A DNA stretch of 64,000 bases, taken from positions 44,924 to 108,923 of the forward strand of contig JBJKXM010000004.1 in NCBI GenBank assembly GCA_045561575.1, read 5' to 3'. Both the position numbers and the translations under genes were made by a program. Under the pieces are notes generated by a model. The model was given only the letters and a program-made list of their open reading frames with translations. It had not been told where the DNA came from and ran no database searches. The DNA comes from Flavobacteriales bacterium. GTDB lineage: Bacteria > Bacteroidota > Bacteroidia > Flavobacteriales > BACL11. Below, one piece after another: positions 3,095-61,312 of the stretch (within the stretch, counting starts at the first letter, position 1; every line of letters starts with the position of its first letter).

Positions 3095-3517
3095 TTAATT
3101 GTATTCTTTAATATTGATTATCCTATTATTATCATCTAATTTCATATTAATTTTAAGATAATTAGTTGGAAGCAAATCTTCTAGTTTTTCAGGCCACTCA
3201 ATAAAACAATAAGAAGAACTAAAAAAATACTCTTCATATCCTATATCAAATACCTCATCTTGTTTTTCAGTTCTATAAAAATCAAAATGATATATTATGT
3301 CATCATTTACATTTGAGTACTGATTTACAATAGAAAAAGTTGGGCTAGAGACAACATCAGAAACCCCTAACTCTTTACAAAACTTTTTAATAAATGATGT
3401 TTTGCCTACCCCCATTTCACCATAAAAAAGAAAAACCTTTGAATTATATTTCTCAAGAATCATTTTTGCAACAGCACACAATTCTTCTTCTTGTTTTATA
3501 ATAAATTTTAAACTCAT
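3095..3517 (-). CDS. tsaE: tRNA t6A37 biosynthesis ATPase TsaE
   Basis: P-loop GEMGVGKTSFIK, followed by SPTFSIVNQY and HFDFYR, in a ~140-aa protein. Confidence 0.9.
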   Translation of the reverse strand: MSLKFIIKQEEELCAVAKMILEKYNSKVFLFYGEMGVGKTSFIKKFCKELGVSDVVSSPTFSIVNQYSNVNDDIIYHFDFYRTEKQDEVFDIGYEEYFFSSSYCFIEWPEKLEDLLPTNYLKINMKLDDNNRIINIKEYN

Positions 3518-5059
3518 TATTTTGGTTCCATAACAATTACGGGAAGCAACATCTCCTCTAAAGAAACTCCACCGTGTTGATAAGTATTTTTATAAAATTA
3601 ACGTATTTATTATAGTTATTCTGATATACAAAATACAAATCTTCTTTTGCAAAGATATACTTACTACTTATATTTTGTTTGGGCAAGAAAAATTTTAAAG
3701 GATCATTACTTCAAATACCTCATTTGAATTATAATTTAAATTTTTACCTTGTTTGTATCTTAAATTTGGATTTACTCGCTTATCCCCTATCACTTTTGAT
3801 GGTTTATTTACATTTATTGTACCATGATCAGTTGTTATGACAATTTTAGACCCCTGTTCTGCAATTTTAGAGATAATATCATAAAGTGGTGAATGCTCAA
3901 ACCAAGAAGATGTTAGCGATCTATAAGCAGAGTCATCATCTGCTAATTCCTTTATTACTTTCATCTCTGTTCTTGCATGTGAAAGCATATCAACAAAATT
4001 ATAAACTATAACATTTAAAGCATTATGTTTCATATTTTCAATTTTATTAATAACCTTTCTTCCAAAATCAATATTTGTGATCTTAGTGTAGGTAGATTTA
4101 AATTGATTCAAATTACATCTACTTAAATTATCAATTAAAAAATCTTCTTCAAACATATTTTTTCCGCCTTCATCCTCATCATTTAGCCATTTATCCGGAT
4201 ATTTATTTGCAATTTCTGACGGTTTTAAACCTGAAAAAATAGAGTTCCTGGAGTATTGTGTAGAAGTAGGCAATATACTCATATACATATCATCATCGAT
4301 GATTTTAAATTTTTCTAATACCTTACCTTCAATAACTTTCCACTGATCATATCTTAAGTTATCTATTAATAATAAGTAAACAGGTTTTTCATTACTTAAA
4401 TAAGGAAAAACTTTTTTTTTCAATAAATTATGAGATAATAAAGGGGAATTATTTTCATTAATCCAGTTTTCATAATTTTTAGATATAAATCTGAAAAATT
4501 GAGAATTAGCCTCTGTTTTTTGCATTGAAATAATTTCATCAATGCTATTATCATTTGATTTCTCAAGTTCTAACTCCCAAAAAATTATTCTTTTATACAC
4601 ATCACACCACTCTTCAAATGACAAATTAGAAGATAGTTGTAGAGAAATATTTCTAAATTCTTGCTGATAACCTCTAGCAATCTTTTCATCTACTAATCTT
4701 GATGAATCTAAATTCTTTTTTATAGATAAAAGTATTTGACTAGGATTGACAGGTTTAATTAAATAATCAGATATTTTAGACCCAATAGCTTCCTCCATTA
4801 TACTTTCTTCTTCACTTTTGGTAATCATAACAACTGGAATATTATTAAACTTATCTTTAATTATATATAAAGTTTCAAGCCCAGATAAACCAGGCATATT
4901 CTCATCTAAAAAAATAAGATTAAATGAATTATTTTCAATGATTTCAAGAGCTTCATCACCACTTTTGGCGGTAGTTAAATTATATCCTTTTGACTGTAAA
5001 TAAATTACATGTGGTTTTAGTAATTCTATTTCATCATCTACCCAAAGTATATTATTCAT
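3517..5059 (-). pseudogene. porX: PorX-like T9SS response regulator (CheY receiver + PglZ/alkaline-phosphatase-like domain), interrupted by two 1-nt frameshifts
   Basis: The 454-aa ORF (3695-5059) has a receiver domain (ILWVDDE...LDENMPGLSG) and a PglZ-like body, but ends prematurely at ...NSNEVFEVMIL. A second frame continues with NDPLKFFLPKQNISSKYIFAKEDLYFVYQNNYNKYVNF. A third frame continues with YKNTYQHGGVSLEEMLLPVIVMEPK*, with its stop at 3517-3519 overlapping the tsaE ATG as TAATG. Restoring 2 nt gives about 514 aa, the usual PorX length. Confidence 0.8.
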
Positions 5060-5108
5060 CTTTAAAATATTTTATACGAAAATTAAAAAAAAACATCTAT
5101 TTTAGATT

Positions 5109-6350
5109 ATGCATTCTAATAAAAGAGCAAAAATAATTAATGACCCAATTTACGGATTTATTGAGATAGATAAAGGTATAATAAATGATCTTATTAATCA
5201 TAATTATTTTCAAAGATTAAGAAGAATATCTCAACTTGGACTTTCCTATTTAGTATACCCTGGAGCAGAACATTCTAGATTTCAGCATGCTCTTGGCTGC
5301 TTACACTTGATGAAAAAAGCACTAGATATTCTTGAAAAAAAGGGTCAAAAAATTACATCTGATGAGAAAACGGCAGTTAAAATAGCAATATTACTACATG
5401 ATATAGGGCATTCACCATTTTCGCATGCACTTGAAAGAACATTAATCAAAAATATAAGTCATGAAGAAATAACTCTTCTTTATTTACATAGATTTAACGA
5501 AATTTTTGATGGAAAATTATCTTTAGCTATTAAAATTTTTACTGATAATTATAATAAAAAATTTCTAAATCAATTAGTCTCTTCTCAACTTGATATTGAC
5601 AGATTAGATTACTTAAAAAGAGATAGTTTTTTTACTGGAGTTGCTGAAGGCAATATCGGAGTTGACAGAATCATTAATATGTTGAATGTAGAAAATGATA
5701 TGCTTGTAATCGAAGAAAAAGGAATATATTCTATTGAAAAATTCTTACTTGCCAGAAGATTAATGTATTGGCAAGTCTACCTTCATAAAACTGTTCTTTC
5801 TTCAGAGTTTATGTTGATAAAACTGATTCAACGAGCCGTTTATCTTGTAAAAAATCAACAAAAAATATATTTATCTCCAGAACTTGATTATTTTTTAAAA
5901 AATGAATTCACTCTTGAAGAATTAAAAAATGACAATAGTTTTTTAGAAAAATTCTCAAAAATGGATGATTATGAAATTTTCACATGTTTAAAATACTGGA
6001 TTGGCAGTAATGATTATGTATTATCAAATTTGTCAAAGAAAATTCTCAACAGAGATTTACTTAAGATTAAAATTCAAAAAAATAGTTTTGATATAACAAA
6101 AATTAAAGAATGTAAAGAAATAATGATAAATAACGAAAAAATTACCTCACATGAAGTTGATTTTTTTATTTTTTCTGAAAAAGTAAGTAATAGTCTATAC
6201 ACTACTAACGATGATAATATTAAAATTCTGTTTAAAGACGGTAGTATTAAAGATTTCTCTAATTCATCCGAACAATTTGATAATAAAGTGTTTAGTAAAA
6301 CAATAAATAAATACTTTTTTTGTTTTCCTAAAGAATATTTTATAGAATAA
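5109..6350 (+). CDS. HD-domain phosphohydrolase (dNTP triphosphohydrolase-like)
   Basis: HSRFQHALGCLHLM, LLHDIGHSPFSH and DRLDYLKRDSFFTG motifs. Confidence 0.8.
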   Translation: MHSNKRAKIINDPIYGFIEIDKGIINDLINHNYFQRLRRISQLGLSYLVYPGAEHSRFQHALGCLHLMKKALDILEKKGQKITSDEKTAVKIAILLHDIGHSPFSHALERTLIKNISHEEITLLYLHRFNEIFDGKLSLAIKIFTDNYNKKFLNQLVSSQLDIDRLDYLKRDSFFTGVAEGNIGVDRIINMLNVENDMLVIEEKGIYSIEKFLLARRLMYWQVYLHKTVLSSEFMLIKLIQRAVYLVKNQQKIYLSPELDYFLKNEFTLEELKNDNSFLEKFSKMDDYEIFTCLKYWIGSNDYVLSNLSKKILNRDLLKIKIQKNSFDITKIKECKEIMINNEKITSHEVDFFIFSEKVSNSLYTTNDDNIKILFKDGSIKDFSNSSEQFDNKVFSKTINKYFFCFPKEYFIE

Positions 6351-8774: not shown

Positions 8775-9556
8775 TGCATCGTTCACTTTCATATATTGAT
8801 CCTCAAGCTAATCTAGCAAAAAATGTTGTTGTAGAACCTTTTGTTACAATTGAAAAAAATGTTGAAATAGGAAGTGGAACATGGATAGGGTCGAATGTAA
8901 CCATTATGGAGGGAGCTAGAATTGGAAAAAACTGTGAAATTTTTCCAGGTGCAGTAATTTCTGCAATTCCTCAAGATTTAAAATTTGATGGAGAAGATAG
9001 TTTAGTAATAATTGGTGATAATACTGTAATTAGAGAATGTGCTACTGTAAATAGAGCAACAAAAGTAACAGGTAAAACTATTGTTGGAAATAATTGTTTA
9101 ATTATGGCTTATGCTCACGTTGCTCACGACTGCATTATTGGTGATAATTCAATAATTGTAAATAATGTTGCTTTAGGAGGACATGTAGAAATTGGAGAAT
9201 ATGCAATAGTTGGAGGTTTAAGTGCAATTCATCAATTTGTAAAAATTGGAAGACATACGATGATTTCAGGTGGTTCTTTAGTAAGAAAAGATGTCCCCCC
9301 CTTTGTAAAAGCTGGTAGAGAACCTCTATCATTTGTTGGAATCAACTCAATTGGACTAAGAAGAAGGTCTTTTACAGATGTAGAAATAGGAGAAATTCAA
9401 GATATATACAGAGTATTATATCAAAGAAACTTTAATAATACTCAAGCTATTAACAAAATAGAAATTGATTTTAAAGTTTCAAAAAACAGAGATGAAATCA
9501 TTGATTTTGTTAAAAATTCAGGTAGAGGTATAATGAGAGGATACAATCAAAAATAA
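8774..9556 (+). CDS. lpxA: acyl-ACP--UDP-GlcNAc O-acyltransferase
   Basis: Hexapeptide-repeat left-handed beta-helix protein of 260 aa, in the conserved position after lpxC/fabZ. Confidence 0.9.
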   Translation: MHRSLSYIDPQANLAKNVVVEPFVTIEKNVEIGSGTWIGSNVTIMEGARIGKNCEIFPGAVISAIPQDLKFDGEDSLVIIGDNTVIRECATVNRATKVTGKTIVGNNCLIMAYAHVAHDCIIGDNSIIVNNVALGGHVEIGEYAIVGGLSAIHQFVKIGRHTMISGGSLVRKDVPPFVKAGREPLSFVGINSIGLRRRSFTDVEIGEIQDIYRVLYQRNFNNTQAINKIEIDFKVSKNRDEIIDFVKNSGRGIMRGYNQK

Positions 9557-31171: not shown

Positions 31172-33448
31172 TTATTTAATAATTATTCTTTTTTCTATCC
31201 TGCCATCATCAAAATGGAAAAACAAAGTTTTATTAAGCTTGAACAACACTTCTTTTCCAAGAACATCTGTTATTTTAACGACACTTCTTTTATCGAAATC
31301 ATAATAATTATAAGACGATGTAATATCAAGAGTAAAATTGATGTTTGTAATACTATCACATCCAATTGAATTTGTTAATATTATAGAATAATCTCCTGAA
31401 ACATATAACACTATTCCGTTCCAACTTATACTACTATTTGAAACTAAGGTATCATATGAATATGAATCATAAATACAACTTCCATCATCATAATTAGCAA
31501 ATTGATTAAAATTACAGGCAATTGGATCAGTACATCCAGTAATCCCATAGCAATTACCTAGTAAATTATTATCTATCCATACAAGTCTAAATTCTATCCA
31601 ATTTTTCAAAAAACCTATTTCATCTTGGTATGTATTTCCAACATAAAAGTTTGGCCAAACATAAGTATCTAAAATATCCCATTTCTGAAAATTTCTATCA
31701 CTTGCATCTTCTAAATAAAAAACAACACTATCTATAAAATTAAAAATAGAATCTTTATGAAAGCTATTAGCTCTTAAATACTCCCATCTACATTTTAATT
31801 TATTTACATAATTGGAGTCCTCTAAAAGCCTTTCAAACCAAAACGGATTGTTCCATGCACATCCCTGCCCTCCATCATCGACTTCCCATCCATTAGTTAG
31901 TCCTCCATTACAAAAATTAGCATTTCCAAAAGCTAAATTATAGTCCCAAAAAGGTCCCATGGTTAGCTTTCCTGCATTATCATCTCTATCCTTATACATG
32001 TAAGTACTAAGTCTATATCCATCAATATTTCTAGAAAGTTCATTAATTATATATAAGTCAATAAAAGAATTTACATCAATATACTTTGAATAGCCTATAA
32101 GTGTATCATTAAAGTTAGGGCCTGATAAAGCATTTTCAAAACTATCTACAAAGTTTTCTATGTAATTTTTTTGAATAGGATGTAATGCTGGTCCCTCAGG
32201 ATAATGATATTGAATAAAAATTGAACCTCCTCCTAAATTTGGGAAATTTGATTGCCAATTACTTCCTCCTGAACCAGTGAATTTATCAATCTTAACTATG
32301 TAACCTCCTGTTAAACTATCACCATTTAAATCATCTGAATCTAAAGCTGCAATATCAACTCTGTTTTTATCTCTTTTTATTTTTTCCATTAAAATATAAA
32401 CTCCTTGATAATCTCCATTTATTACTAATTCACAATAAATAGTTCTTGAACAATAATTCCCCATCTTACGCCCCAAATCAAAAGTTAAGAAATTACGCAT
32501 TAGACTCTTATCTGTATATGGAGCATATAAAATCCAATCATTTTCAATAGGCATGCCTAATAATGACACATTATTGTTATTACCTAAAGAATCTTGAGTT
32601 TCAAAACCATATGACTTTTTTGGAAAAGATTGAGAAGAACTTCCTCTGTATTCAATACTAATTTTACCGTTATAATCATTAAAAGTATCATTAATTGAAT
32701 TTAAATTTCCAAAACCATTGTCAATTATTCCCATATCACAAATTATTCTAGCACTATCTAATATGTTTTGATTATTTGTATTTATCATTACAATAGGAAG
32801 GTTAGATGATGTGAAAATTAATGGTGGATTAAACCATGAATGAGGGGAGGAATAATTTAAGTTAGTTGATGTTATACCTAAAGATATAAAAACACGAGCT
32901 GTTAAATCTGATGAAGAAATATCTTGATTATGAATCTGGACAGATAGTACATTAACTCCTTGTTTTAAAATAGTATCTATTAACTGTGGATCAATAATAA
33001 ATTGATCCGGAGAACCTCCTTGATACATTTGTGCCTCTTTATAAGTATTTGCAACTTGATTATATGCTGGATGATCCCCATAAATACCAATATTTGACCT
33101 TGCTATTTCAACATCATTTAAATAAGCAACAAACGCATCATCAAAATCAATATCCAAAACTAAAGAACCAATTTCTGATGTATCAATAATTGAAAACTCA
33201 TTTCTTAGATATAAAGAAATTGTTGGGTTTATAATTGTAGAATCATCTCCATCTCCATACCCAAAACCACCTTGCCCATTTTGCCACAGAGAATCATCAT
33301 AAGAAATAGTTCTCCAATTTGAATCTGGCTCACTTATTCCAACATAATATTTCCAAAATTCACTCTCAAAAACTACTGTTTCCCAATGATCTACAGATTG
33401 AGATAAAAGAGTAAAAGGAAAAAAAACAAGAAATAATAATTTTTTCAC
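31172..33448 (-). CDS. secreted CotH-family (atypical kinase fold) protein with a T9SS-type C-terminal tail
   Basis: CotH-like core (LYAPYTDKSLMRNFLTFDLGRKMG, GVYILMEKIKRDKNRVDI, GPFWDYNLAFGNA). I prefer the GTG start at 33448, which gives a classic signal peptide (MKKLLFLVFFPFTLLSQS), over the track's TTG at 33478. The C-terminal tail is ...ITDVLGKEV...FHFDDGRIEKRIIIK. Confidence 0.7.
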   Translation of the reverse strand: MKKLLFLVFFPFTLLSQSVDHWETVVFESEFWKYYVGISEPDSNWRTISYDDSLWQNGQGGFGYGDGDDSTIINPTISLYLRNEFSIIDTSEIGSLVLDIDFDDAFVAYLNDVEIARSNIGIYGDHPAYNQVANTYKEAQMYQGGSPDQFIIDPQLIDTILKQGVNVLSVQIHNQDISSSDLTARVFISLGITSTNLNYSSPHSWFNPPLIFTSSNLPIVMINTNNQNILDSARIICDMGIIDNGFGNLNSINDTFNDYNGKISIEYRGSSSQSFPKKSYGFETQDSLGNNNNVSLLGMPIENDWILYAPYTDKSLMRNFLTFDLGRKMGNYCSRTIYCELVINGDYQGVYILMEKIKRDKNRVDIAALDSDDLNGDSLTGGYIVKIDKFTGSGGSNWQSNFPNLGGGSIFIQYHYPEGPALHPIQKNYIENFVDSFENALSGPNFNDTLIGYSKYIDVNSFIDLYIINELSRNIDGYRLSTYMYKDRDDNAGKLTMGPFWDYNLAFGNANFCNGGLTNGWEVDDGGQGCAWNNPFWFERLLEDSNYVNKLKCRWEYLRANSFHKDSIFNFIDSVVFYLEDASDRNFQKWDILDTYVWPNFYVGNTYQDEIGFLKNWIEFRLVWIDNNLLGNCYGITGCTDPIACNFNQFANYDDGSCIYDSYSYDTLVSNSSISWNGIVLYVSGDYSIILTNSIGCDSITNINFTLDITSSYNYYDFDKRSVVKITDVLGKEVLFKLNKTLFFHFDDGRIEKRIIIK

Positions 33449-33529
33449 TATACGAAGATATAAATAATGAAAAAACAACAGATAAGTAATTATATCTATT
33501 TGATTTATTTAATTTTGAGTAAAAAAATT

Positions 33530-35035: not shown

Positions 35036-35043
35036 TAAATTTG
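35036..35043 (+). promoter_or_regulatory. -7 box (TAnnTTTG) for paaABCD
   Basis: taaatttg lies 19 nt upstream of the paaA ATG. A TTG at 35013-15 sits at about the spacing expected for a -33 element. Confidence 0.5.
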
Positions 35044-41042: not shown

Positions 41043-41636
41043 ATGATTTATGAATTTAATGGGTATACTCCTGTAATTGATCCATCTTCTTATATTCACA
41101 AAGAAGCTACTATTATTGGTAACGTAATAATTGGTAAAAACGTTTATGTAGGCCCAGGGGCATCAATAAGGGGTGATTGGGGTAAAATTACTATTATGGA
41201 TGGATGTAACGTACAAGATAATTGTACTATTCATATTTTTCCTGGAAAGGATGTAATACTTGAAGAAAATGCTCACATTGGACATGGAGCAATAATTCAT
41301 GGAAGTCATATTGGAAAAAATACTTTAATTGGAATGAACTCAGTAATAATGGACGATGTAATAATTGGTGAAGAATGTATTATTGGAGCTTTATGTTTTG
41401 TTAAAGGTGAAATGAAAATTCCTAAAAGAAAAATTGTTGTAGGAAACCCTGCAGTAATAAAAGGAGAAGTTACTGATAATATGCTTGAATGGAAAAAACA
41501 AGGCACTAAACTTTATCAAAAATTACCTGATGAATGTAAAAATTTAATGTCAGAATGTAATCCACTTAGCAAAAAAGAAAAAAACAGAAAAGAAAAGCAA
41601 AAAATATCTTTTAAAACTTGGAAAAAAACAAAATGA
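41043..41636 (+). CDS. paaY: hexapeptide-repeat (gamma-carbonic-anhydrase-like) protein PaaY
   Basis: Left-handed beta-helix repeats and operon position. It has a Lys-rich C-terminal tail. Confidence 0.75.
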   Translation: MIYEFNGYTPVIDPSSYIHKEATIIGNVIIGKNVYVGPGASIRGDWGKITIMDGCNVQDNCTIHIFPGKDVILEENAHIGHGAIIHGSHIGKNTLIGMNSVIMDDVIIGEECIIGALCFVKGEMKIPKRKIVVGNPAVIKGEVTDNMLEWKKQGTKLYQKLPDECKNLMSECNPLSKKEKNRKEKQKISFKTWKKTK

Positions 41637-43672
41637 AAAATTACGAGAATTATGTATTAGGAAGTTGGATTAAAGGAGATGGAGATTTTAAATCACTACA
41701 TAATGCAATTACAGGAAAAATCATAGGACAAGCTTCAACCAAAGGACTTGATTTTAAAGATATTTTAAATTATGCAAGAAACGTTGGTGGACCTAATTTA
41801 AGAAAAATGACTTTTCAAGAAAGAGGTTTAATGCTTAAAAAGCTTGCTCTTCATTTACATGCAAAAAAAAATCTATTTTATCCAATTAGCTATTTAAGCG
41901 GTGCAACAAAAATTGACTCATGGATTGATATTGAAGGAGGTATAGGTAATCTTTTTACTAATGCTTCTTTAAGAAGACAATTTCCAGATCTCCCATTTCA
42001 CGTTGAAGGAAATGCTGCAGGACTTTCCAAAAATGGATCTTTTATTGGTCACCACATCATGGTTCCTAAGCAGGGAGCTGCTATACATATAAATGCATTT
42101 AATTTCCCAATTTGGGGAATGCTTGAGAAGATAGCTGTGAATTTAATGGCAGGAATGCCAGCAATCATTAAGCCTGCAACTATAACATGCTATTTAACTA
42201 ATGTTATGTTTGAAGAAATAATAAATTCAAAAATTCTTCCTGAAGGAAGCTTACAACTTATTTGTGGAAGTGCAAGAGGAATTCTTGATCATATTTCATC
42301 AGAAGATGTTGTTACATTTACCGGAAGCGCATCTACAGGAAAAAAATTAAAATCTCACCCAAATATTGTTGATAAAGCTGTTCCATTTAACATGGAAGCA
42401 GATTCTTTAAACTGCTCAGTTCTTGGAAAAGATTCTATTCCAGGGACAGCTGATTTTGATATTTTTATAAAAGAGGTTTTAAAAGAAATGACCGTAAAAG
42501 CTGGTCAAAAATGTACAGCAATTAGAAGAATTATTGTTCCAAGTGAATTAGTGAATGATGTAAATAAAGCACTATCATTAAAACTATCTAAAACTAGTAT
42601 TGGAGATCCTCAAGTTGAAGGTGTAAGAATGGGAAGTCTAGCTGGTAAAGAACAAGTTGAAGAAGTATCTGAAAAAATTAATCAACTAAGCAATTCTCAA
42701 AAAATCATATTCCAAAAAAATCTTGAGCTAGTTGGAGTAGAAAATGAAGATGGCGCTTTTATATCTCCTACTCTATTTTTAAATGAAAAACCATTTCAAA
42801 ATACAGATTGTCATGATATTGAGGCATTTGGTCCAGTAGCTACTATAATGCCCTATGATAATTTAGATGAAGCTATAGAACTTAGTAGGATGGGGAAAGG
42901 TTCATTAGTATCTTCAATTATTACAAATGATATGAAAACTGCTAATGAATTTGTTTTAGGTGCTGCCAGCTTGCATGGAAGAATTTTAGTGTTAAATGAA
43001 TCTTGTGCAAAAGAAAGTACTGGTCATGGATCTCCAATGCCACTACTTACCCATGGTGGTCCTGGACGAGCAGGAGGAGGTGAAGAAATGGGGGGTATAA
43101 GGGGAATAAAACATTATCTTCAAAGAACAGCTATTCAGGGTCATCCAACAACAATAACTGCAATAACAAAACAATATCAAGTAGGTGCAAAACAAAATAC
43201 TAAAGGTCCACATGTGTTTTACAAACATTTTGATGAAATAGAAATAGGAGACACTGTAATAACTGAAAAACATACTGTAACTCTTGATGATATTGAAAAT
43301 TTTGCAGATCTAAGTGGAGATAAGTTTTATGCACATATGGATGAAAATTCACTTGAAGACACTATCTTTACGGAAAGAGTTGCTCATGGATATTTTATCA
43401 TGTCTAAAGCAGCTGGATTATTTGTTAAGCCTGAAAAGGGTCCGGTTCTTTTAAATTATGGAATTGATGAATGTAGATTTACCAAACCTGTATACCCTGG
43501 AATGACAATTGGAGTAAAATTTACAGCAAAAGAAAAAATAGTGCAAGAAAAAAAAGAAGATGAAAATTTTGAAAAAGGAATTGTAAAGTTTTTAGTTGAT
43601 GTTTATGATGATGAAAATGAAACCGTAATGCTTGCAACTATATTAACAATGGTTAAAAAAAATAAAATATGA
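41633..43672 (+). CDS. paaZ: bifunctional oxepin-CoA hydrolase / 3-oxo-5,6-dehydrosuberyl-CoA semialdehyde dehydrogenase
   Basis: N-terminal ALDH domain (catalytic GQKCTAIRR) and a C-terminal MaoC hotdog domain (FADLSGDKFYAHMD). The ATG at 41633 overlaps the paaY stop as ATGA. Confidence 0.9.
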   Translation: MKNYENYVLGSWIKGDGDFKSLHNAITGKIIGQASTKGLDFKDILNYARNVGGPNLRKMTFQERGLMLKKLALHLHAKKNLFYPISYLSGATKIDSWIDIEGGIGNLFTNASLRRQFPDLPFHVEGNAAGLSKNGSFIGHHIMVPKQGAAIHINAFNFPIWGMLEKIAVNLMAGMPAIIKPATITCYLTNVMFEEIINSKILPEGSLQLICGSARGILDHISSEDVVTFTGSASTGKKLKSHPNIVDKAVPFNMEADSLNCSVLGKDSIPGTADFDIFIKEVLKEMTVKAGQKCTAIRRIIVPSELVNDVNKALSLKLSKTSIGDPQVEGVRMGSLAGKEQVEEVSEKINQLSNSQKIIFQKNLELVGVENEDGAFISPTLFLNEKPFQNTDCHDIEAFGPVATIMPYDNLDEAIELSRMGKGSLVSSIITNDMKTANEFVLGAASLHGRILVLNESCAKESTGHGSPMPLLTHGGPGRAGGGEEMGGIRGIKHYLQRTAIQGHPTTITAITKQYQVGAKQNTKGPHVFYKHFDEIEIGDTVITEKHTVTLDDIENFADLSGDKFYAHMDENSLEDTIFTERVAHGYFIMSKAAGLFVKPEKGPVLLNYGIDECRFTKPVYPGMTIGVKFTAKEKIVQEKKEDENFEKGIVKFLVDVYDDENETVMLATILTMVKKNKI

Positions 43673-44415
43673 AAAAAATTATACTAATATTTTTAATAAT
43701 ACCTAGCTTTTTAATAGGACAAAACGGACCGACTGCAAGTTTCATTTATAATCCAGTATGTCTTGGAACTAACATAGTATTAACAGATTTTTCATATCCT
43801 GATTTTAATACAAACTCTCCTATTGTGTCATGGGATTGGGAATATAATGGGAATATTATTTCGACTCAACAAAATGCAGATTATCTTTTTTCTCAGTGTG
43901 GACTTTACGATATTATTTTGACTGTTACAGACGCAGATGGTTTTTCAGATGACACTACTATTAATGTAGAAATATTTTGCCCACCAACAGCTGATTTTAT
44001 TAATGATGTTGTATGCTTTGGAGATCCAACAAACTTTGTTGATGTTTCATCACCAGGTGATGGAACTCCACCATTAAATTCTGGATCAACATGGATGTAT
44101 GTTTTTGGAGATGCGGACCCTCCAAATGCTGTAAATCCAAATTGCACTGCTACTTTTAACTATGCAGGTATACACCCTGTCACCTTTATTGTTTCTGAAA
44201 TTCAGTTTAACGGACAATATTGTATAGACTCCATTGTAAAAGATGTTCAAGTAGACTCATGTACTGTTGGGATAGAAAACATATTTAATGTTCAAAAGAA
44301 AAAAATTATTAATAACTATAATATATTAGGAAAATCCAGAAAAATTAATTCAAGAGATTTAAATATTATTATTTACAGTGATGGTACAGTAGAAAAAAAG
44401 ATAATAATTAAATAA
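43669..44415 (+). CDS. secreted PKD-like repeat protein with a T9SS-type C-terminal tail
   Basis: Signal peptide MKKIILIFLIIPSFLIGQ. Two PKD-like modules follow (PTASFIYNPVCLGT...WDWEYNG...GLYDIILTVTDADG and PPTADFINDVVCFGD...). The tail is ...YNILGKSRK...IIYSDGTVEKKIIIK. Its start overlaps the paaZ stop as ATGA, and the next gene starts 1 nt after its stop. Confidence 0.7.
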   Translation: MKKIILIFLIIPSFLIGQNGPTASFIYNPVCLGTNIVLTDFSYPDFNTNSPIVSWDWEYNGNIISTQQNADYLFSQCGLYDIILTVTDADGFSDDTTINVEIFCPPTADFINDVVCFGDPTNFVDVSSPGDGTPPLNSGSTWMYVFGDADPPNAVNPNCTATFNYAGIHPVTFIVSEIQFNGQYCIDSIVKDVQVDSCTVGIENIFNVQKKKIINNYNILGKSRKINSRDLNIIIYSDGTVEKKIIIK

Positions 44416-45171
44416 ATGGAAGGGTCAGTAGAACTAAATATCAATAACAATATTGGTACAATTGAATTTTACCATCCACAAAGTAATTCACTTCCTTCAA
44501 ACATACTAGAAAAGCTAGCAAAAACTATTGAAGAATGTGGCGATAATGATAATATTAGTGTTATTATTATGAAGAGCAAAGGAGATAGAGTATTCTGCGC
44601 AGGAGCTTCATTTGATGAACTTTCTAGCATCTCAAATTTTAATGAAGGTAAATCTTTTTTTATGGGTTTTGCTAATGTGATCAATGCTTGTAGAAAATGT
44701 CCAAAACTAATTATCTGTAGAGTTCAAGGAAAAGCAGTAGGTGGTGGTGTTGGAATGGCTTGTGCTGGTGATTATTGTTTTGCCACAAAATTCTCTGCAA
44801 TAAAGTTAAGTGAACTTGCAGTAGGGATTGGACCATTTGTAGTTGGACCTGCTGTAGAAAGAAAATCTGGACTGTCAGCATATTCAACATTATCAATAAA
44901 TGCAACCAAATGGTTTAGCGCTGAGTGGGCACAACAAAAGGGAATATATGCTGAAGTTTATGAATCTAACGATTTAATGGACGAGGCTATAAATAAGTTA
45001 GCTCATGAACTAGTAAATTCAAATCCTGAAGCCACTAAAAAATTAAAAGAAGTCTTTTGGGAAAATGCTAATAATTGGGATGAATTATTGAAAGAGAGAG
45101 CGGAATATAGTGGTCAATTAGTTCTCTCAGAATTTACAAAACAAGCCATAGCTAGATTCAAAAAAAAATAA
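44416..45171 (+). CDS. enoyl-CoA hydratase/isomerase family protein (possible PaaF role)
   Basis: Crotonase motifs (KGDRVFCAGASFDEL, GKAVGGGVGMACAGD). Confidence 0.7.
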   Translation: MEGSVELNINNNIGTIEFYHPQSNSLPSNILEKLAKTIEECGDNDNISVIIMKSKGDRVFCAGASFDELSSISNFNEGKSFFMGFANVINACRKCPKLIICRVQGKAVGGGVGMACAGDYCFATKFSAIKLSELAVGIGPFVVGPAVERKSGLSAYSTLSINATKWFSAEWAQQKGIYAEVYESNDLMDEAINKLAHELVNSNPEATKKLKEVFWENANNWDELLKERAEYSGQLVLSEFTKQAIARFKKK

Positions 45172-47226
45172 GTGGCAAACATTAAAAAAGAAATACTAGA
45201 AAAAGCATATCGTTTAATTTGCACTGCTCGTTCTCTAAGTTCAATTTATGAAGAGAATAAAGAAATAACATCAAAATACGTTCATGCAACGTCTAAAGGT
45301 CATGAAGTAATTCAAATTGCACTGGCATTACAATTAAAAAAACATGATTGGGTTTCACCATATTACAGAGACGATTCAATTTTACTTGGAATTGGGATAA
45401 AACCTTATGAACTTATGCTACAATTGATGTGTAAAAAAGATGATCCTTTCTCTGGAGGAAGAACATATTACTCTCATCCATCATTAAAGAGAGAAAATAT
45501 GCCAAAAATTATTCACCAATCATCTGCTACTGGAATGCAAGCAATACCAACAACCGGAATTGCACTAGGCTTGAGATATAAATTTAAAAATAACTTTAAA
45601 GATACAGAATTAGAAAAAAATCCTATTGTTGTATGCTCATTTGGTGATGCATCAATTACTGAAGGAGAAGTTGCTGAGGCATTCCAAATGGCATCTCTAA
45701 AAAAACTTCCAATTTTATATCTTGTGCAAGATAATGAATGGGATATTTCTGCTCATTCATCAGAAACAAGAGCAGTTGATGCTGCAACATATGCAAAAGG
45801 ATTCGGAATAAAAAGCTACTCTATTGATGGAACAAATTTTGAAGAATCATACAACATTATTTCTAAGTCAATTTCTGAAATAAGAAAAAATTCTTACCCA
45901 ATACTAATACACGCTAAAGTTCCTCTACTTAATCATCATACTTCTGGAGTGAGAATGGAATGGTATAGAGATGATCTTGAACAAGCAAAAAAAGATGATC
46001 CCTTTCCAAAACTTGAAAAATTACTAATTGATAATAATTTTCAAGAATCTAAATTAAATGAGATAAAAAAAGAAATTGATAAGGAAATTGTTGAAGAATT
46101 TAAAAAAGCAATGGAGGCTGCTGATCCAGAACCTGAAGATTTATTTAAATATAAATTTTCTCCAACTGATATAAATAAGGAAGTTGGTAATAGAAGCCCT
46201 GAAAACAAAGAGAGTATTTTTATGGTAGATGCAGGAATCTGTGCCATAAAAGAATTAATGGAAGATCATCCAGAATGTCTTTTATATGGGCAAGATGTTG
46301 GAAAAAGATTAGGAGGTGTATTTAGAGAAGCAGCAACACTTGGGGAGCATTTTGGAGATGAAAGAGTTTTTAATACTCCTATTCAGGAGGCATTTATAAT
46401 TGGAAGTACTGTAGGTATGTCTGCTATTGGTTTAAAACCTATAGTTGAAATTCAATTTGCTGATTATATTTGGCCAGGTCTGAACCAATTATTTACTGAA
46501 GTAAGTAGATCGTATTATCTTTCAAATGGAAAATGGCCTGTGAGTTGTGTTATTAGAGTTCCAACAGGGGCATACGGAAGTGGAGGGCCATATCACTCTT
46601 CATCTGTTGAATCTATACTAACAAATATCCACGGTATTAAAATAGCATACCCATCAAATGCAGCGGATTTAAAAGGGTTGTTGAAAGCTGCTTATTATGA
46701 CCCTAACCCAGTAGTAATACTTGAGCATAAAGGACTTTACTGGGGAAAAATAAAAGGAACTGAAGACACAAAAACAATTGAACCATCCAAGGATTATATT
46801 ATACCTCTTGGAAAGGCAATATCAGTTTTACAAGCAAATAAACAAAACATTGATTTAGGAAAAAGCTTGTGTATTATTACTTATGGAATGGGTGTTTACT
46901 GGGCTAAACAAGCAGCAAATAACTACAAAGGTCAAATAGAAATTATCGATCTTAGAAGTCTCTACCCTTTAGATGAAGAATATATCTACAGCAAAGTAAA
47001 AGAACATAGCAATTGTATTGTAGTAAGTGAAGAACCTAGTCAAAACTCATTTGCTCAATCGCTTGCATCAAAGATCTATAAAAACTGTTTTGAATTTCTA
47101 GATAATTCTATATCTGTTATAGGATCAGAAAATCTTCCAGCAATTCCTTTAAATTCAATTTTAGAAGAAAGAATGTTACCAAGTTCTAAAAAAATAGAAA
47201 TTGAAATAAAAAAGATCCTTGAATAA
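45172..47226 (+). CDS. fused E1 alpha/beta subunit of a TPP-dependent 2-oxoacid dehydrogenase
   Basis: GTG start directly after the upstream stop. The N-terminal half is E1-alpha-like (FGDASITEGEVAEAFQMA) and the C-terminal half is E1-beta-like (FNTPIQEAFIIGSTVGMS, IVEIQFADYIWPG). The protein is 684 aa. Confidence 0.8.
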   Translation: MANIKKEILEKAYRLICTARSLSSIYEENKEITSKYVHATSKGHEVIQIALALQLKKHDWVSPYYRDDSILLGIGIKPYELMLQLMCKKDDPFSGGRTYYSHPSLKRENMPKIIHQSSATGMQAIPTTGIALGLRYKFKNNFKDTELEKNPIVVCSFGDASITEGEVAEAFQMASLKKLPILYLVQDNEWDISAHSSETRAVDAATYAKGFGIKSYSIDGTNFEESYNIISKSISEIRKNSYPILIHAKVPLLNHHTSGVRMEWYRDDLEQAKKDDPFPKLEKLLIDNNFQESKLNEIKKEIDKEIVEEFKKAMEAADPEPEDLFKYKFSPTDINKEVGNRSPENKESIFMVDAGICAIKELMEDHPECLLYGQDVGKRLGGVFREAATLGEHFGDERVFNTPIQEAFIIGSTVGMSAIGLKPIVEIQFADYIWPGLNQLFTEVSRSYYLSNGKWPVSCVIRVPTGAYGSGGPYHSSSVESILTNIHGIKIAYPSNAADLKGLLKAAYYDPNPVVILEHKGLYWGKIKGTEDTKTIEPSKDYIIPLGKAISVLQANKQNIDLGKSLCIITYGMGVYWAKQAANNYKGQIEIIDLRSLYPLDEEYIYSKVKEHSNCIVVSEEPSQNSFAQSLASKIYKNCFEFLDNSISVIGSENLPAIPLNSILEERMLPSSKKIEIEIKKILE

Positions 47227-47264: not shown

Positions 47265-47272
47265 TATATTTG
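47265..47272 (+). promoter_or_regulatory. -7 box (TAnnTTTG)
   Basis: tatatttg lies 16 nt upstream of the ATG at 47289. Confidence 0.45.
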
Positions 47273-47288
47273 TGCAATTATCTGATTA

Positions 47289-49671
47289 ATGAAAAAAACA
47301 CACTTTATTTTCTTATTGTTAACCTTATTATGTTACTACAGTTATGGTCAAAAAAATTACACCATTAGCGGATATGTTCAAGAATCTGAAAGTGGTGAAA
47401 ATTTAATTGGAGTATCTATTTACGATAAAGAAACATTTAAAGGTACAGTAACTAATCAATACGGATTCTACTCACTAACCTTAGAAGAAGGAAATTATGA
47501 AATTATCTATTCTTTTATAGGTCTAGAATCGACAACTAAAAAGGTTAACCTAAGCAAAAATTTAAGAATCAACATTTCTCTTGAGAGTAATGCTATCATT
47601 ACTGAAGAAGTAATAGTTACAGGAGAAAAACTTGACAAAAACGTAAGTAGTTCAAAAATGAGTCAAGTCAAAATTGAAGTAAATAACATCAAACAACTTC
47701 CTGTTATTTTAGGTGAAGTAGATGTATTAAAATCTGCTCAATTATTACCAGGAATCACATCAAATGGAGAGGGAAGTTCAGGATTATATGTAAGAGGCGG
47801 AGGACCTGATCAAAATCTTATTCTTTTAGATGAAGCGGTTGTTTACAATGCCTCGCATTTGTTTGGCTTCTTTTCTGTCTTCAATGCAGATGCAATTAAG
47901 GATATAAACATAATTAAGAGGAGGAATGCCTGCAGAATATGGAGGACGACTATCATCAGTTTTAGATATAACAATGAATGATGGAAATAATAAAAAATAT
48001 CAGGCAGATGGAGGTATTGGATTACTTTCATCTAGATTAACTTTACAAGGGCCTATTCAAAAAGAAAAAAGCTCGTTTATTGTTTCAGCAAGAAGAACAT
48101 ATATTGATGTACTATCAAAGCCTTTTCTTAACAGAAAAGACCCTGAAACTGGAGAACCTAATGCATTTGCCGGATCAGGATACTTCTATGATCTAACAAC
48201 TAAAATTAACTATAGATTATCTGATAAAGACAGATTATATCTAAGTGGATATTTTGGAAGAGATGTTTTCAGTTTTGCCAATGCAGACAATGGTTTTGCT
48301 ATTGAAATTCCATGGGGAAATGCTACTGGATCATTAAGATGGAATCATTTATTTAATGATAAATTATTCATGAACACATCTGTAATTTTCAGTGATTATA
48401 GATTTGAATTTAATCTTGCTCAAAGTGAATTTGAATTCAAAATATTTTCAGGAATTAATGATTGGAATACAAAAGTTGATTTTTTATATCAACCAAATCA
48501 AAGACATACAATTAAATTTGGAACCAACTATACATATCATGTCTTTACTCCTGGAAATGCAACAGGGCGATCTGGAGATGTAGAATTTGCACCAGATGAG
48601 ATATTTAGACAATACTCAAATGAAGGTGCCTTATATTTTTCTGATGATTTTGAATTAAGTGATGATATTAAAATTAATGCTGGTTTGAGGTATTCATCAT
48701 TTCAACACAGAGTAGATATTAATTTATTAAGATATGTTTCAAATGATTTAACTTTTAGTTCAGATAATTACAGAAATATTGAACCTAGATTTTCTCTTAG
48801 ATATAAACTAAATCCAACAAGTTCAATTAAAACTTCTTACACAGAAAACTATCAATATATTCATCTTGCATCTACTTCCTCTGTTAGTTTACCAACTGAC
48901 CTTTGGGTTCCAAGTTCTACAGCTATTAAACCTAAATTCTCTAAGCAGTACGCAATTGGATACTTTAAGAACTTTAAGGAAAATATGTATGAGACTTCAT
49001 TAGAAGCTTATTACAAGGAAATGACTAATTTAATTGAATATAAAGAAGGTTTTTTACCTGAAGACAATACAAATCAAAGTAGTGACAATTCTTTTACATT
49101 TGGTGATGGAGACTCTTATGGAATTGAATTATTACTTAAAAAAAATCAAGGAAAAACAACGGGTTGGATTGGTTATACATTATCAAAAACAACTAGATAT
49201 TTTGATGAAGTAAATAATGGAATTGAATTTCCAGCAAAATATGATAGGAGACATGATTTATCCATTACTGCAACTCATAAATTATCAAAAGCATGGGTAT
49301 TGAGTGGAGTTTTTGTTTATGCAACAGGAAATGCTATAACTCTTCCTACAGAAAGATATGTTATTGGTGGTGATGTTTATACCCAATTTACATCAAGAAA
49401 TGGATATAGAATGGATCCATACCATCGTATGGATATTGGTGCAACTTACACACCTTCAAAAAAGAAGAAAAAGAAGTTTAAATCAACATGGAATTTTTCT
49501 ATCTATAATGTATACTCAAGAAAAAACCCATACTTTATTTATTTTGCTCTAGAAGGTTTAGAAGAAAACGGTGAAAATCAAAATATCCAAAACGGAAATG
49601 TTGAACCTAAAGCATACCAAGTTTCTATTTTCCCAATATTACCGTCCGTAACATGGAACTTTAATTTTTAA
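47289..49671 (+). pseudogene. TonB-dependent receptor (CarboxypepD_reg-like N-domain + plug + barrel) split by a +1 frameshift near 47918
   Basis: ORF 47289-47981 carries the signal peptide, the carboxypeptidase-regulatory-like domain and the start of the plug, and ends in the out-of-frame sequence ...NIIKRRNACRIW. ORF 47926-49671 begins within the conserved plug motif, (G)GMPAEYGGRLSSVLDI, and ends ...TWNFNF. Removing 1 nt at attaag|a|ggaggaatg restores IIKGGMPAEYGG. Confidence 0.8.
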
Positions 49672-49673
49672 CT

Positions 49674-50717
49674 ATGAGAAAACTACTATTTATTTTTTTA
49701 TGTTTTTTATCTTGTCAAGATGAAATCTCATTAGAATTTCCTATCGAGTCTCAAAGGCTAGTTGTTGAAGGAGGAATAGAACCAAATATGCCTCCATATG
49801 TTATTCTTTCAAAAAATCAGGGATATTTTGATGAAATTAATGCAAACACATACAATGATTTATTTATTTATGATGCAGAAGTAGTTGTTTGGACATTAGA
49901 TCAAAATGGAGTTGCTGATTCAGTTTATTTACAACCGCTCCCTCCTCCCCTGGATTCAATTCCAGTATTCACTGATATTAATTACTTATTCTCATTAACT
50001 AATCCACCATATGCAAATTCAAATGGCTATCCTTTTAGTAAAGAAAATAAAACATATAATTTAATTGTGAGATGGAATAATCAGGAAATAACAAGTCAAA
50101 CTACAATACCAACCACAACTCCATTAGATTGTTTATGGGTAGAAAAAAATGAATTTACTGATAAAGATTATGAATTTGACATTAGAGCCATATATGATGA
50201 TCCTGCTGAAGTAGCAAATAATATTTTATTAAAATACAGAAAACCTATTCACTGGAAAGTTGACACTATAAATTGGGTATTAGAGGAAAATAATGATGAT
50301 TTAATGGAATTAATTGATGCAGGCACAGATATTTTAATAAATGGAACTCGTTTTGAAACTTATTTTCCCCAAAAAGGAGATGGAAACTTCCCTCAATTTC
50401 CATATAATTCCGATAGATATCGAACATTCGAAATAAATGGACAAACTGATAGCATCTTTGTTCCTCATGATGAAGTAATAATTAAATTCTGTCAAATTGA
50501 TGAACCTTCATTAAAATTTTGGAGAAGTCTTGTGAGACAATTTGGTTCAAATGGTAATCCATTTCAAGAACCCTTAAACATTGTAAGTAATGTAAATGGA
50601 GGTTACGGTGGTTGGACTGGATATGGAAGTGTTTATTATAGAATCCCAATTATTGATGGTTTTTCAACAAATTCTCCATTACCTATTGATTCCATTGAAA
50701 TAACTGATGTTTTTTAA
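49674..50717 (+). CDS. DUF4249-like lipoprotein (partner of this TonB-receptor type)
   Basis: Lipoprotein signal MRKLLFIFLCFLSCQDE. It starts 2 nt after the receptor stop. The family call rests on recalled gene context and is not verified. Confidence 0.5.
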   Translation: MRKLLFIFLCFLSCQDEISLEFPIESQRLVVEGGIEPNMPPYVILSKNQGYFDEINANTYNDLFIYDAEVVVWTLDQNGVADSVYLQPLPPPLDSIPVFTDINYLFSLTNPPYANSNGYPFSKENKTYNLIVRWNNQEITSQTTIPTTTPLDCLWVEKNEFTDKDYEFDIRAIYDDPAEVANNILLKYRKPIHWKVDTINWVLEENNDDLMELIDAGTDILINGTRFETYFPQKGDGNFPQFPYNSDRYRTFEINGQTDSIFVPHDEVIIKFCQIDEPSLKFWRSLVRQFGSNGNPFQEPLNIVSNVNGGYGGWTGYGSVYYRIPIIDGFSTNSPLPIDSIEITDVF

Positions 50718-59635: not shown

Positions 59636-61312
59636 ATGAAAACACATTTACTTAAGTATATTGCTATTTTTCTAATTTTCATTGGATTAAATGCAAATGC
59701 TCAAACTAGGTATATTGACAATATGTTTGATAGTGTAACTGTTACATCAAATGTAGCTTATGGTCAAAATATTTCAATACTACCTCTATTACAAGGTCTT
59801 CCACCAGTAATGGACACACTTTTATGTGATATTTATGAGCCAAAAAACGATACATTAACCGATAGACCCGTTATTGTTCTGATTCATACTGGTAGTTTTT
59901 TACCACCTGTTTTAAATGGTCAAGCTACTGGTTCAAAAAATGATAATTCTATAGTTGAAAACTGCATGAGATGGGCTAAAAAAGGATATGTTGCTGTTGC
60001 AATGACATATAGACAAGGATGGAATCCAACATCTCCTAGTCAAGCGGTTAGAACTGCTACTATCCTACAAGCTGCCTACAGAGGTATTCATGATACAAAA
60101 GCAATGGTTAGATATCTAAGAAAGACTGTTGCTGAAGATGGAAATTCATATGGAATCGATGATAGCAAAATTGTTGTAGGAGGACAAGGAACTGGAGCAT
60201 ATCTTTCAATGGGATATATAACTCTTGATACCGTTTCTGAACTATTTATCTATCCTAAATTCTGGGATACATCAGATCCAGATCCAGCAAATCATGTTCC
60301 ATTAATTTCTCCTCAATTCCCAATTCCAGGTCCTATAACTTATGGATATGGAAATATTGACGGAACTGATACAACTTATTATCCAGCCAACTTCCCACCA
60401 TTTAATTTCCCTGTTGACGTTCTTTGGAACTTCCCAAATAACCCATCATACAGTAATGATGTAAGCATGGCATTTAATTTAGGTGGAACTCTTGCTGACC
60501 TTGACTGGTTAGATGGAGGACAAGTACCACATGTTTCATTCCATTGTGAAAATGACCCATTTGCTTCAATAGACGAAGGTGTTATTATTGTACCTACTAC
60601 AGGAGATATTGTAATTCCTGACGTTATTGGTTCAAGAGTTGCAAATCATTACAACACATTATGGGGAAATAATAGTGGATTTAATCAAGCTGGTTTAAAT
60701 GATACATTATCTCAAATCTCAAATTCATATAACAGTAATTGGAATCACCCATTAAATGATGGTTCTCTGGTTTATGATGGTTTATACGTTTTTGATACTC
60801 CGGCACCTGACACTGTTCCTAATGCATTTGGTGAAATGCCTTATCATGAATCATCACCATGGGATTGGTGGGATCTAGCTACTTATGATATGATGTTTGC
60901 TGCTGTAAACGGTGCACCAGCTGGATATGGAGCTGCTAATTCATTACTAGGTTCTCCAAATTCAGGATCAGACTCAATTCCAATGCTTTACTTAGATACT
61001 ATTCATGGGTACTTAAACCCAAGAATGTATGAAGTACTTGGACTAGGAGGGTCATCTGATTTTAATGAAGTAATTGAAAAAACAACTCAAGTTTATCCAA
61101 ACCCTGCAAAAGATAATATTAACATAGTTAGTTATGCTGAATTAATTAACAGTGTTGATGTATATAATCTATCAGGACAAAAGGTATTAAGTAAAAAAGT
61201 TAATAATGGAACAACAACAAAACTTAATACAAGTGGATTATCAAAAGGAGTATATATAATTGATGTTAAATCAAGAGTTTCATCAGTTAAAAAGAAAGTT
61301 ATTATAGAATAA
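59636..61312 (+). CDS. secreted alpha/beta-hydrolase-like protein with a canonical T9SS type A C-terminal sorting domain
   Basis: Signal peptide, esterase-like segments (PVIVLIHTGSF, IVVGGQGTGAYLS, VSFHCENDPFA), and the CTD VYPNPAKDNINIV...VDVYNLSGQKV...LSKGVYIIDVKS...KKKVIIE. Confidence 0.65.
   Translation: MKTHLLKYIAIFLIFIGLNANAQTRYIDNMFDSVTVTSNVAYGQNISILPLLQGLPPVMDTLLCDIYEPKNDTLTDRPVIVLIHTGSFLPPVLNGQATGSKNDNSIVENCMRWAKKGYVAVAMTYRQGWNPTSPSQAVRTATILQAAYRGIHDTKAMVRYLRKTVAEDGNSYGIDDSKIVVGGQGTGAYLSMGYITLDTVSELFIYPKFWDTSDPDPANHVPLISPQFPIPGPITYGYGNIDGTDTTYYPANFPPFNFPVDVLWNFPNNPSYSNDVSMAFNLGGTLADLDWLDGGQVPHVSFHCENDPFASIDEGVIIVPTTGDIVIPDVIGSRVANHYNTLWGNNSGFNQAGLNDTLSQISNSYNSNWNHPLNDGSLVYDGLYVFDTPAPDTVPNAFGEMPYHESSPWDWWDLATYDMMFAAVNGAPAGYGAANSLLGSPNSGSDSIPMLYLDTIHGYLNPRMYEVLGLGGSSDFNEVIEKTTQVYPNPAKDNINIVSYAELINSVDVYNLSGQKVLSKKVNNGTTTKLNTSGLSKGVYIIDVKSRVSSVKKKVIIE

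Follow-up and report, generated by a model that had tools for sequence, protein, structure and literature searches.

We have analysed a 64,000-nt stretch of DNA from a Flavobacteriales bacterium (hereafter, the window; contig JBJKXM010000004.1 of assembly GCA_045561575.1), in which an open reading frame (ORF) for a putative secreted protein of 248 amino acids (aa) is embedded in a cluster of phenylacetate-degradation (paa) genes, between paaZ and a gene of the crotonase family. Our favoured interpretation, held with moderate confidence, is that the ORF product is an exported, non-enzymatic protein of two PKD domains with a reduced sorting tail, and that its gene has long been carried along on the paa transcript as a passenger. 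The gene was inserted once, into the paaZ/crotonase junction, most simply at the root of a single clade of AT-rich, uncultured Flavobacteriales from the sea. Its product would be made as a Sec precursor and, judging from the sequence pattern, cut by signal peptidase I (SPI) before Gln18, leaving a mature protein of ~25 kDa in which two PKD beta-sandwiches in tandem are joined by a flexible linker to a three-stranded tail of ~40 aa. Acting as a shortened, type-A-like sorting or anchoring signal of the secretion system of type IX (T9SS), the tail would place the protein on the cell surface or release it from there, and the role of the protein may be that of a binder or a spacer. The lack of a recognisable promoter or terminator of its own and the base-to-base packing of the genes suggest that the ORF owes its expression to the paa transcript, on which it rides as a passenger. 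It would take no step in phenylacetate catabolism, any link to the pathway being one of co-expression.

The N-terminus of the ORF product, MKKIILIFLIIPSFLIG followed by QNGPTA, shows both an n-region and an h-region, as signal peptides do, with MKK and IILIFLIIPSFLI leading to a G/Q junction. Signal peptidase I substrates of Bacteroidetes follow a “Q-rule,” with Gln at position +1 (PMC5837995), and by inspection the ORF product displays the whole Sec/SPI pattern, that is, basic residues at the N-terminus, then a hydrophobic stretch, with a small residue in position −1 and Gln in position +1. Across the 26 aligned family sequences, Gln18 never varied, the residue before it was always G, S or A, and a conserved lipobox Cys was not present. 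The signal peptides of other exported proteins encoded in the window end likewise.

The first PKD module scored 41.3 bits with PKD_4 (PF18911; cut-off 27) and 30.7 bits with PKD (PF00801; cut-off 23.5), and its sequence matched the PKD domains of ColH and ColG. In the AlphaFold model, the predicted local distance difference test (pLDDT) value was above 90 over residues 20–110 (mean of 78 for the whole protein). Foldseek superposed the module on solved PKD domains (4TN9, 2Y72, 4L9D and 6AEM; ColG, PrtV) with a template modelling (TM) score of 0.84–0.86 and a root-mean-square deviation of 1.5–1.9 Å. The second module, taken alone, obtained 17.6 bits with PKD_4, which is under the Pfam threshold. 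By hhalign it nevertheless proved to be a homologue of module 1 (probability 97%, E 8.4e-11), and it was predicted to form a second beta-sandwich, with block-mean pLDDT values of 57–89. Profile comparison and predicted structure together showed that the two beta-sandwiches arose by internal duplication. The inserted loops of module 2, PGDGTPPLNSGSTW and GDADPPNAVNPN, were conserved in the family alignment, which also contained invariant Cys, Trp and Gly positions. No catalytic domain was found in the ORF product. The signal peptide and the two PKD-like modules had already been proposed in a first annotation made from the DNA letters (here, the sequence-only reading), and both assignments were borne out, the second module being sub-threshold in Pfam. 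The top Foldseek match, the B12-binding lipoprotein 7BIZ, was discarded as a functional lead, the likeness being that of tandem Ig-like domains only (TM 0.30).

The family to which the protein belongs comprised 25 clusters of 235–255 aa (plus fragments) sharing 50–98% identity, all from marine metagenomes, and the next matches were generic PKD proteins. The gene order paaZ, ORF, crotonase was found in 13 of 13 places with readable flanks (the window, the P0019 contig, L001/L002, L003, genome loci L004 and L005, and metagenome loci L084–L086 and L088–L090), followed by the gene of a fused E1 2-oxoacid dehydrogenase (E1) where the contig continues. The junctions in these places ranged from −4 to +8 nt. 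Relatives were collected by a PaaZ scan of 185,579 species genomes, which yielded 80 loci. Among the closest loci without the ORF were L007 and L009–L012 (PaaZ 74–77% identical), in which paaZ lies 3–20 bp from the crotonase gene. At L008, the paaZ–crotonase gap of 160 bp holds no remnant of the ORF. The ORF was absent from L006–L012, L021, L049 and all more distant loci, and is thereby confined to one clade. Presence in paa clusters across lineages, by which membership of the pathway was judged, was hence not observed. The sequence-only reading had proposed looking for the ORF at the same position in orthologous clusters. It occupies the same slot in all 13 carriers, but is missing from the sister lineages. 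The outcome named there as speaking against a functional link, absence from all related clusters together with signs of recent insertion, was not what we have found.

The ORF-bearing loci were monophyletic in 500 of 500 neighbour-joining (NJ) bootstraps of concatenated PaaZ and E1 (1247 columns) and in 300 of 300 bootstraps of E1 alone. A single gain at the base of the clade is the simplest history. A PaaZ-only NJ tree without bootstraps had left L001 outside the other carriers, implying loss; this paraphyly was superseded by the bootstrapped PaaZ + E1 tree. When compared with four orthologues, the ORF gave a ratio of nonsynonymous to synonymous substitution rates (dN/dS) of 0.07–0.34, against 0.08–0.13 for the flanking enzymes, the closer pairs falling within the range of those enzymes; these values are approximate, dS being saturated (0.99–1.9). 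The G+C content of the ORF (0.301) and of its third codon positions (GC3, 0.165) equalled those of the neighbouring genes. The repeats around the ORF were 12–13-nt, A/T-rich chance matches only, with no target-site duplication, and neither mobile-element genes nor a transposase were found near it. Searches against the phage families of PHROGs and, for the 33–51 kb region, against Rfam gave no match.

These data established the gene as real, under selection and derived from a single old insertion. They effectively excluded that the ORF arose by chance, that it is a gene in decay, or that it stems from a selfish or mobile insertion of recent date. Such an origin would accommodate the absence of the gene from the sister lineages and from canonical paa clusters. 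It is contradicted by an ORF intact in 13 of 13 places with dN/dS well below 1, by native composition, by the lack of repeats, of a transposase and of any phage family match, and by a within-family divergence which implies that the insertion is old. The sequence-only reading had considered a selfish or neutral insertion captured into the operon. Capture agrees with the tight paaZ–crotonase junctions of the sister loci and with the single carrier clade. Being old, native in composition and under purifying selection, the gene is neither selfish, as the missing flanking repeats and the matching G+C and GC3 values also indicate, nor neutral, given its dN/dS and its retention in every place.

A hint on where the family came from was provided by a relative with three PKD domains (P0157, locus L087, positions 56–1012), which carries the same signal peptide and tail and is 33–35% identical (E 9e-29). 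Its gene sits on a 1.1-kb contig with no paaZ before it and no crotonase gene after it, and a TAAGTTTG motif is found 21 nt before its ATG. From this comparison, the operon-embedded family looks like an offshoot of ordinary stand-alone genes for PKD-plus-tail proteins, and the gene inside the operon may have had an ancestor resembling P0157.

With regard to its expression, the ORF fits tightly between its neighbours, as the sequence-only reading had described. Its ATG overlaps the paaZ stop codon as ATGA (43669–43672, 4 nt), and its TAA (44413–44415) is followed by the crotonase ATG at 44416, with a 0-nt gap. The order on the + strand is paaA, paaB, paaC, paaD, crotonase, paaH, paaI, paaJ, paaY, paaZ, the ORF, a second crotonase and the fused E1; a reductase-like gene located upstream, on the − strand, is probably paaE. 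The coordinates are given in Table 1. The window (28.7% G+C) is of the tightly packed Flavobacteriales type: an overlap or direct abutment is seen in 17 of its 39 same-strand gene pairs, the gap has a median of 2 bp, and start and stop codons overlap as ATGA at four of the same-strand junctions (7389, 13360, 41633 between paaY and paaZ, and 43669). The weight originally given to the ATGA overlap was therefore not sustained, tight junctions being the norm.

A scripted motif scan found no TAnnTTTG within 1.4 kb upstream of the ORF. Between the motif in front of paaA (ending at 35043) and that at 47265, the only other + strand occurrence (42205) is inside paaZ and lacks an upstream TTG. Scans for sigma-70 promoters and intrinsic terminators over an 18-kb region returned fewer sites than shuffled sequences and are uninformative for a Bacteroidetes genome. 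One terminator-like site was located inside the ORF (44164), in a region that as a whole has fewer such sites than its shuffles. At the motif level, the genes share one strand with no intergenic space and with no internal promoter or terminator seen. The ORF is thus likely a member of the paa transcription unit, being probably transcribed with the paa genes. The second TAnnTTTG motif suggests a separate promoter for the gene pair downstream of E1, which would probably have its own start.

Table 1. Features of the window discussed in the text, with their positions and the evidence for each
Feature	Position	Strand	Evidence
ORF for exported two-PKD-domain protein, 248 aa	43669..44415 (including stop codon)	+	ORF list and sequence
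Sec/SPI signal peptide, aa 1–17, MKKIILIFLIIPSFLIG followed by Q	43669..43719	+	Inspection; putative cleavage before Gln18
PKD module 1, aa 19–103	43723..43977	+	PF18911, PF00801, predicted fold
PKD-like module 2, aa 104–198, with inserted loops PGDGTPPLNSGSTW and GDADPPNAVNPN	43978..44262	+	Homology to module 1
C-terminal tail module, aa 200–248, linker then three short beta-strands ending in IIIYSDGTVEKKIIIK	44266..44412	+	Tail profile, predicted structure
paaZ, upstream neighbour	41633..43672	+	TIGR02278, 872 bits; Aldedh and MaoC domains
Crotonase-family gene ECH2, downstream neighbour	44416..45171	+	PF00378 (ECH_1), 112 bits
Gene of a fused E1 alpha/beta 2-oxoacid dehydrogenase, closing the predicted paa transcription unit	45172..47226	+	PF00676, PF02779, PF02780
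Bacteroidetes-type −7 motif TAAATTTG, candidate promoter of the unit including the ORF	35036..35043	+	Motif match only; 27 nt before paaA ATG
Second TAnnTTTG motif	47265..47272	+	Motif match; 24 nt before TonB-dependent receptor gene
TonB-dependent receptor gene (frameshifted here) and DUF4249 gene	47289..50717	+	Pfam
CotH-domain protein with the same tail	31172..33478	−	PF08757, 219 bits; tail profile, 71.5 bits at aa 570–618

The E1 gene closes the paa operon throughout the group, the order paaZ, crotonase, E1 being seen in the window and in relatives L001–L012. E1 could conceivably supply phenylacetyl-CoA from phenylpyruvate. A phenylacetate-CoA ligase gene was not noticed among the annotated genes of the cluster.

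The tail was studied with a 49-position profile, which was run against 1.84 billion cluster representatives (E ≤ 1e-3). It matched 2020 of them, and the best 150 matches all ended within ~5 residues of the C-terminus. The module is ~45 aa long, with the consensus kllKvvDiLGREtk..kN..LFYIYDDGTVEKrIvIE, and is carried by proteins with CARDB, LRR, plastocyanin-like, FG-GAP, CotH, ASST or PKD domains, most of which, when full-length, begin with a signal peptide of the MKKLLLILLCLPMIGFGQ type (MKK...[GAS]Q). The window itself encodes a second copy (31172–31320, − strand), at the C-terminus of the CotH-domain protein. The tail is therefore a modular, strictly C-terminal element of ~2000 protein clusters. 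No Pfam or NCBIfam model matched the last 56 aa of the ORF product at E ≤ 10, and the module as a whole (both copies in the window and carriers P0089–P0231) goes undetected by these collections. The carrier for which NCBI gives a name is listed as a “hypothetical protein [Cryomorphaceae bacterium].” A search of the Protein Data Bank with the tail gave a chance match (E 0.37) and no related solved structure, and the tail motif string was not found in the literature searched.

Concerning its function, the sequence-only reading had called this element a T9SS tail. As a modular element confined to the extreme C-terminus it stood, whereas its assignment to the T9SS fails every curated model and draws on a weak collinear similarity. 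Among the known C-terminal domains (CTDs) of T9SS cargo, profiles of type B (TIGR04131/PF13585) and type C (NF033708) gave no match at E ≤ 10. The positive control for type A, ORF 59636–61312 of the same window, scored 56.5 bits with the Pfam model and 47.2 bits with TIGR04183. Por_Secre_tail matched none of 10 longer tail carriers. When 72 tails were compared by hhalign with 32 type A CTDs from related loci, the similarity was weak (P ~1e-3, probability 10–21%) but collinear: the alignment pairs “kvvDiLGRe” of the tail with the “i.iyD..Gk.V” strand of the CTD, and both C-termini, each with a terminal K-rich basic and hydrophobic motif. In the full-length AlphaFold2 model, the linker (residues 200–209) had pLDDT values below 50 and the tail strands of 54–69; a tail-only model built on 40 diverse tails again gave three strands, with values of 75–82. 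The type A CTD, on the other hand, is a compact, seven-stranded (3 + 4) Ig-like beta-sandwich (PMC11285876, PMC10202324), and this sandwich is reported to be essential (PMC11285876). A T9SS is to be expected in the organism, since the window encodes a canonical type A CTD protein (59636–61312); none of the T9SS machinery genes was seen in the window.

As the tail falls outside the formal CTD types, it must be a new variant or something else. Our reading of the alignments is that it is, with reasonable probability, a shortened type-A-like T9SS sorting signal. The competing view is that the protein is exported without the T9SS and that its tail is an unrelated module, for instance one that mediates oligomerisation or tethers its carrier in the periplasm or to the outer membrane, which would leave the protein in the periplasm or at the inner face of the outer membrane. 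This would agree with the lack of type A, B or C matches where the control of the same window does match, with three predicted strands in place of seven, with the lack of a related solved structure, and with the NCBI carriers being named only “hypothetical protein.” The strictly C-terminal position of the tail on cargo-like extracellular domains, its collinear similarity to type A CTDs and its terminal basic and hydrophobic motif argue for a sorting signal instead. In addition, the last 22 residues of the type A CTD of HBP35 are reported to suffice for the secretion of green fluorescent protein (PMC10202324). We regard export without the T9SS as rather doubtful, a judgement partly independent of the other readings considered here.

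We have also looked at what else occupies the paa clusters of the relatives, which unrelated genes interrupt at gene junctions. L012 has a HicA/HicB toxin–antitoxin pair between the crotonase gene and E1 (8858–9378), L008 a DUF6428 insert (3664–4134), L010 a DUF1801/OmdA insert (4790–5404), and L049 transglutaminase-like and metallo-beta-lactamase genes. Exported proteins were likewise encountered. In L007, a 510-aa type A CTD protein (3293–4825; Por_Secre_tail 51.9 bits) is encoded 7 bp upstream of paaZ, and in L006 a 603-aa protein with a signal peptide lies between paaY and paaZ (4177–5988). The very paaZ/crotonase slot is occupied in L131 by a 508-aa protein of the arylsulfotransferase family (418–1944; PF05935, 99.6 bits), which has a signal peptide and ends in the short tail seen in the ORF product. 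L131 is a member of the sister group, 0 of 300 bootstraps joining it to the PKD clade, and its insert hence represents an independent event. Five other loci (L013, L014, L016, L023 and L025, mostly labelled Vicingus/Vicingaceae) share a conserved ORF of ~128 aa between paaZ and crotonase, which we take, by eye, to be glyoxalase/VOC-like.

Given the tight packing, the lack of a visible internal promoter and the unrelated inserts in relatives, the position of the ORF in the operon carries less weight than it first seems to. A compact genome and junctions that admit foreign genes largely account for the embedding.

The sequence-only reading had described all neighbouring genes as encoding cytoplasmic enzymes. 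This holds for the immediate neighbours, but not further on: from 2.9 kb downstream of the ORF, and 62 bp after E1, begins the gene of a TonB-dependent receptor (CarboxypepD_reg, Plug and barrel domains), which is followed by a DUF4249 gene. The pair was found after E1 in all seven ORF-bearing loci that extend past E1 (the window, L001, L004, L005, L085, L086 and L090), as well as in the P0019 contig, and was absent after E1 in all five sister loci with readable sequence (L007 and L009–L012). L021, whose contig ends ~200 bp after E1, was left out of this count. In the window, the receptor gene (47289–49671) is split between two frames by a 1-nt insertion near 47911–47913 relative to L004 and L086, reflecting either a frameshift (pseudogene) or an assembly error. 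With 93–95% identity to those of L004 and L086, the receptor is more strongly conserved than the paa enzymes (80–95%).

The presence of this pair is one argument for a functional link, the second option of the sequence-only reading, in which the surface-displayed PKD protein would help to capture an aromatic substrate or form a bridge to the receptor/DUF4249 pair. The paa operon would then be an uptake-plus-catabolism module, and co-expression would explain the position of the gene. The link would account for the fixed position of the gene, for its retention across the whole identity range of the family, and for a receptor pair that follows E1 only in carriers. The arylsulfotransferase-family protein in the L131 slot points the same way, this family acting on phenolic compounds, as do the conserved loops of module 2, which PKD domains do not usually have. 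PKD proteins of marine flavobacteria are co-induced with TonB-dependent receptors in polysaccharide utilisation loci (PULs), and those of Gramella forsetii have been proposed to bridge the substrate to such a receptor (PMC4069401). Yet the shared distribution is fully confounded by phylogeny, with one clade and one event. The receptor has its own promoter motif and stands two genes away, and its gene is frameshifted in the window while the PKD gene is intact. Moreover, the inserts of other paa clusters include plainly unrelated ones (HicAB, DUF1801), and tight gene packing is normal in the genome. Phenylacetate is a small molecule, and no pocket to bind it is evident in the PKD protein. The literature searched links no PKD protein to paa clusters: no paper combining “PKD domain,” “phenylacetic acid” and “Flavobacteri” was found in it, and PMC8027193 mentions phenylacetate for a roseobacter only. 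Overall, we consider a functional link of this kind rather unlikely, although it is the main competing explanation.

Our account of an exported PKD protein whose gene rides on the paa transcript faces several difficulties of its own. The promoter assignment builds on a motif that is short, in a genome that is AT-rich. As for the tail, neither the whole protein nor its last 56 aa matched PF18962, TIGR04183, TIGR04131 or NF033708 at E ≤ 10. Its sequence appears only weakly similar to type A CTDs, and its three predicted strands differ from the seven-stranded sandwich held to be essential for them. No member of the clade encountered so far lacks the gene, the distribution of the gene coincides with that of the receptor/DUF4249 pair (which counts as a single event, since one clade is concerned), and the same junction has received an independent secreted, tail-bearing protein in L131. 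Clade-wide retention, shared receptor distribution and the L131 insert fit a functional link better than pure hitch-hiking.

A bolder proposal, which we regard as improbable, goes further. The paaZ/crotonase junction of these streamlined bacteria would be a recurrent docking site for genes of surface proteins with an uncatalogued miniature CTD, and the PKD and L131 proteins would be extracellular parts for foraging on aromatic compounds. They would be regulated together with the pathway and would cooperate with the clade-specific receptor/DUF4249 pair. The paa operon would be an envelope-spanning module, and the miniature CTD a natural minimal T9SS signal.

Comparison with known systems helps to place the protein. 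Its module 1 resembles that of bacterial PKD proteins such as ColG/ColH and Vibrio PrtV, passing both Pfam models and having the WDW and TVTDxDG motifs. Unlike these proteins, the ORF product consists of only two PKD modules and the tail, with no catalytic or other functional domain, its module 2 is divergent and has inserted loops, and its gene lies inside a catabolic operon. With T9SS type A cargo (PF18962/TIGR04183) it has in common a signal peptide and an extreme C-terminal module found on diverse extracellular-type proteins of Flavobacteriales. The tail is, however, ~45 aa long rather than 70–100, has three predicted strands rather than the 3 + 4 sandwich, and is without the N-terminal PNP-type motif region. 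The protein is thus a member of the PKD family, while neither profile nor predicted fold places its tail in CTD type A, B or C, even though the tail behaves as a sorting tail would.

The PUL proteins GFO_1155 and GFO_3465 of Gramella forsetii (PMC4069401) are alike in being small PKD envelope proteins encoded near a TonB-dependent receptor. The window differs from those PULs in that SusD is missing, the receptor is of the CarboxypepD_reg/DUF4249 type, an aromatic acid rather than a glycan is degraded, and between the PKD and receptor genes lie two genes for cytoplasmic enzymes. The adjacency to a SusC/SusD pair and the usual lipoprotein nature of PUL-type surface binding proteins (SusE/F-like, PKD accessory proteins) were not found either, the receptor gene being 2.9 kb downstream with a promoter motif of its own and the lipobox Cys missing. 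The flanks of the ORF resemble canonical paa clusters (paaABCDE, G, Z, J, F, H, I, Y), with a complete-looking set of paaABCD, paaH, paaI, paaJ, paaY, paaZ and two crotonases. The PKD gene is an extra component here, absent from the clusters of sister lineages, and to our knowledge the described paa pathway has no extracytoplasmic component. In summary, the ORF product is an ordinary class of surface protein whose gene has an unusual and conserved position and which ends in an uncatalogued short tail of the sorting type.

For the interpretation of such genomes, the finding is mostly a caution that, where genes are tightly packed, a base-to-base position in an operon is weak evidence of shared function; in this group, paa clusters harbour numerous foreign inserts. 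At the same time, secreted proteins occur repeatedly beside paaZ (PKD, ASST-like and type A CTD proteins), which hints at selection for co-expression with aromatic catabolism. The more useful by-product is the tail, a module of ~45 aa that marine Flavobacteriales carry in ~2000 protein clusters. Should it function as a T9SS signal, inventories that rely on TIGR04183 and TIGR04131 would undercount the secretomes of abundant uncultured marine lineages. The tail would then also be a natural minimal sorting signal, bearing on the question of what recognition requires of the CTD.

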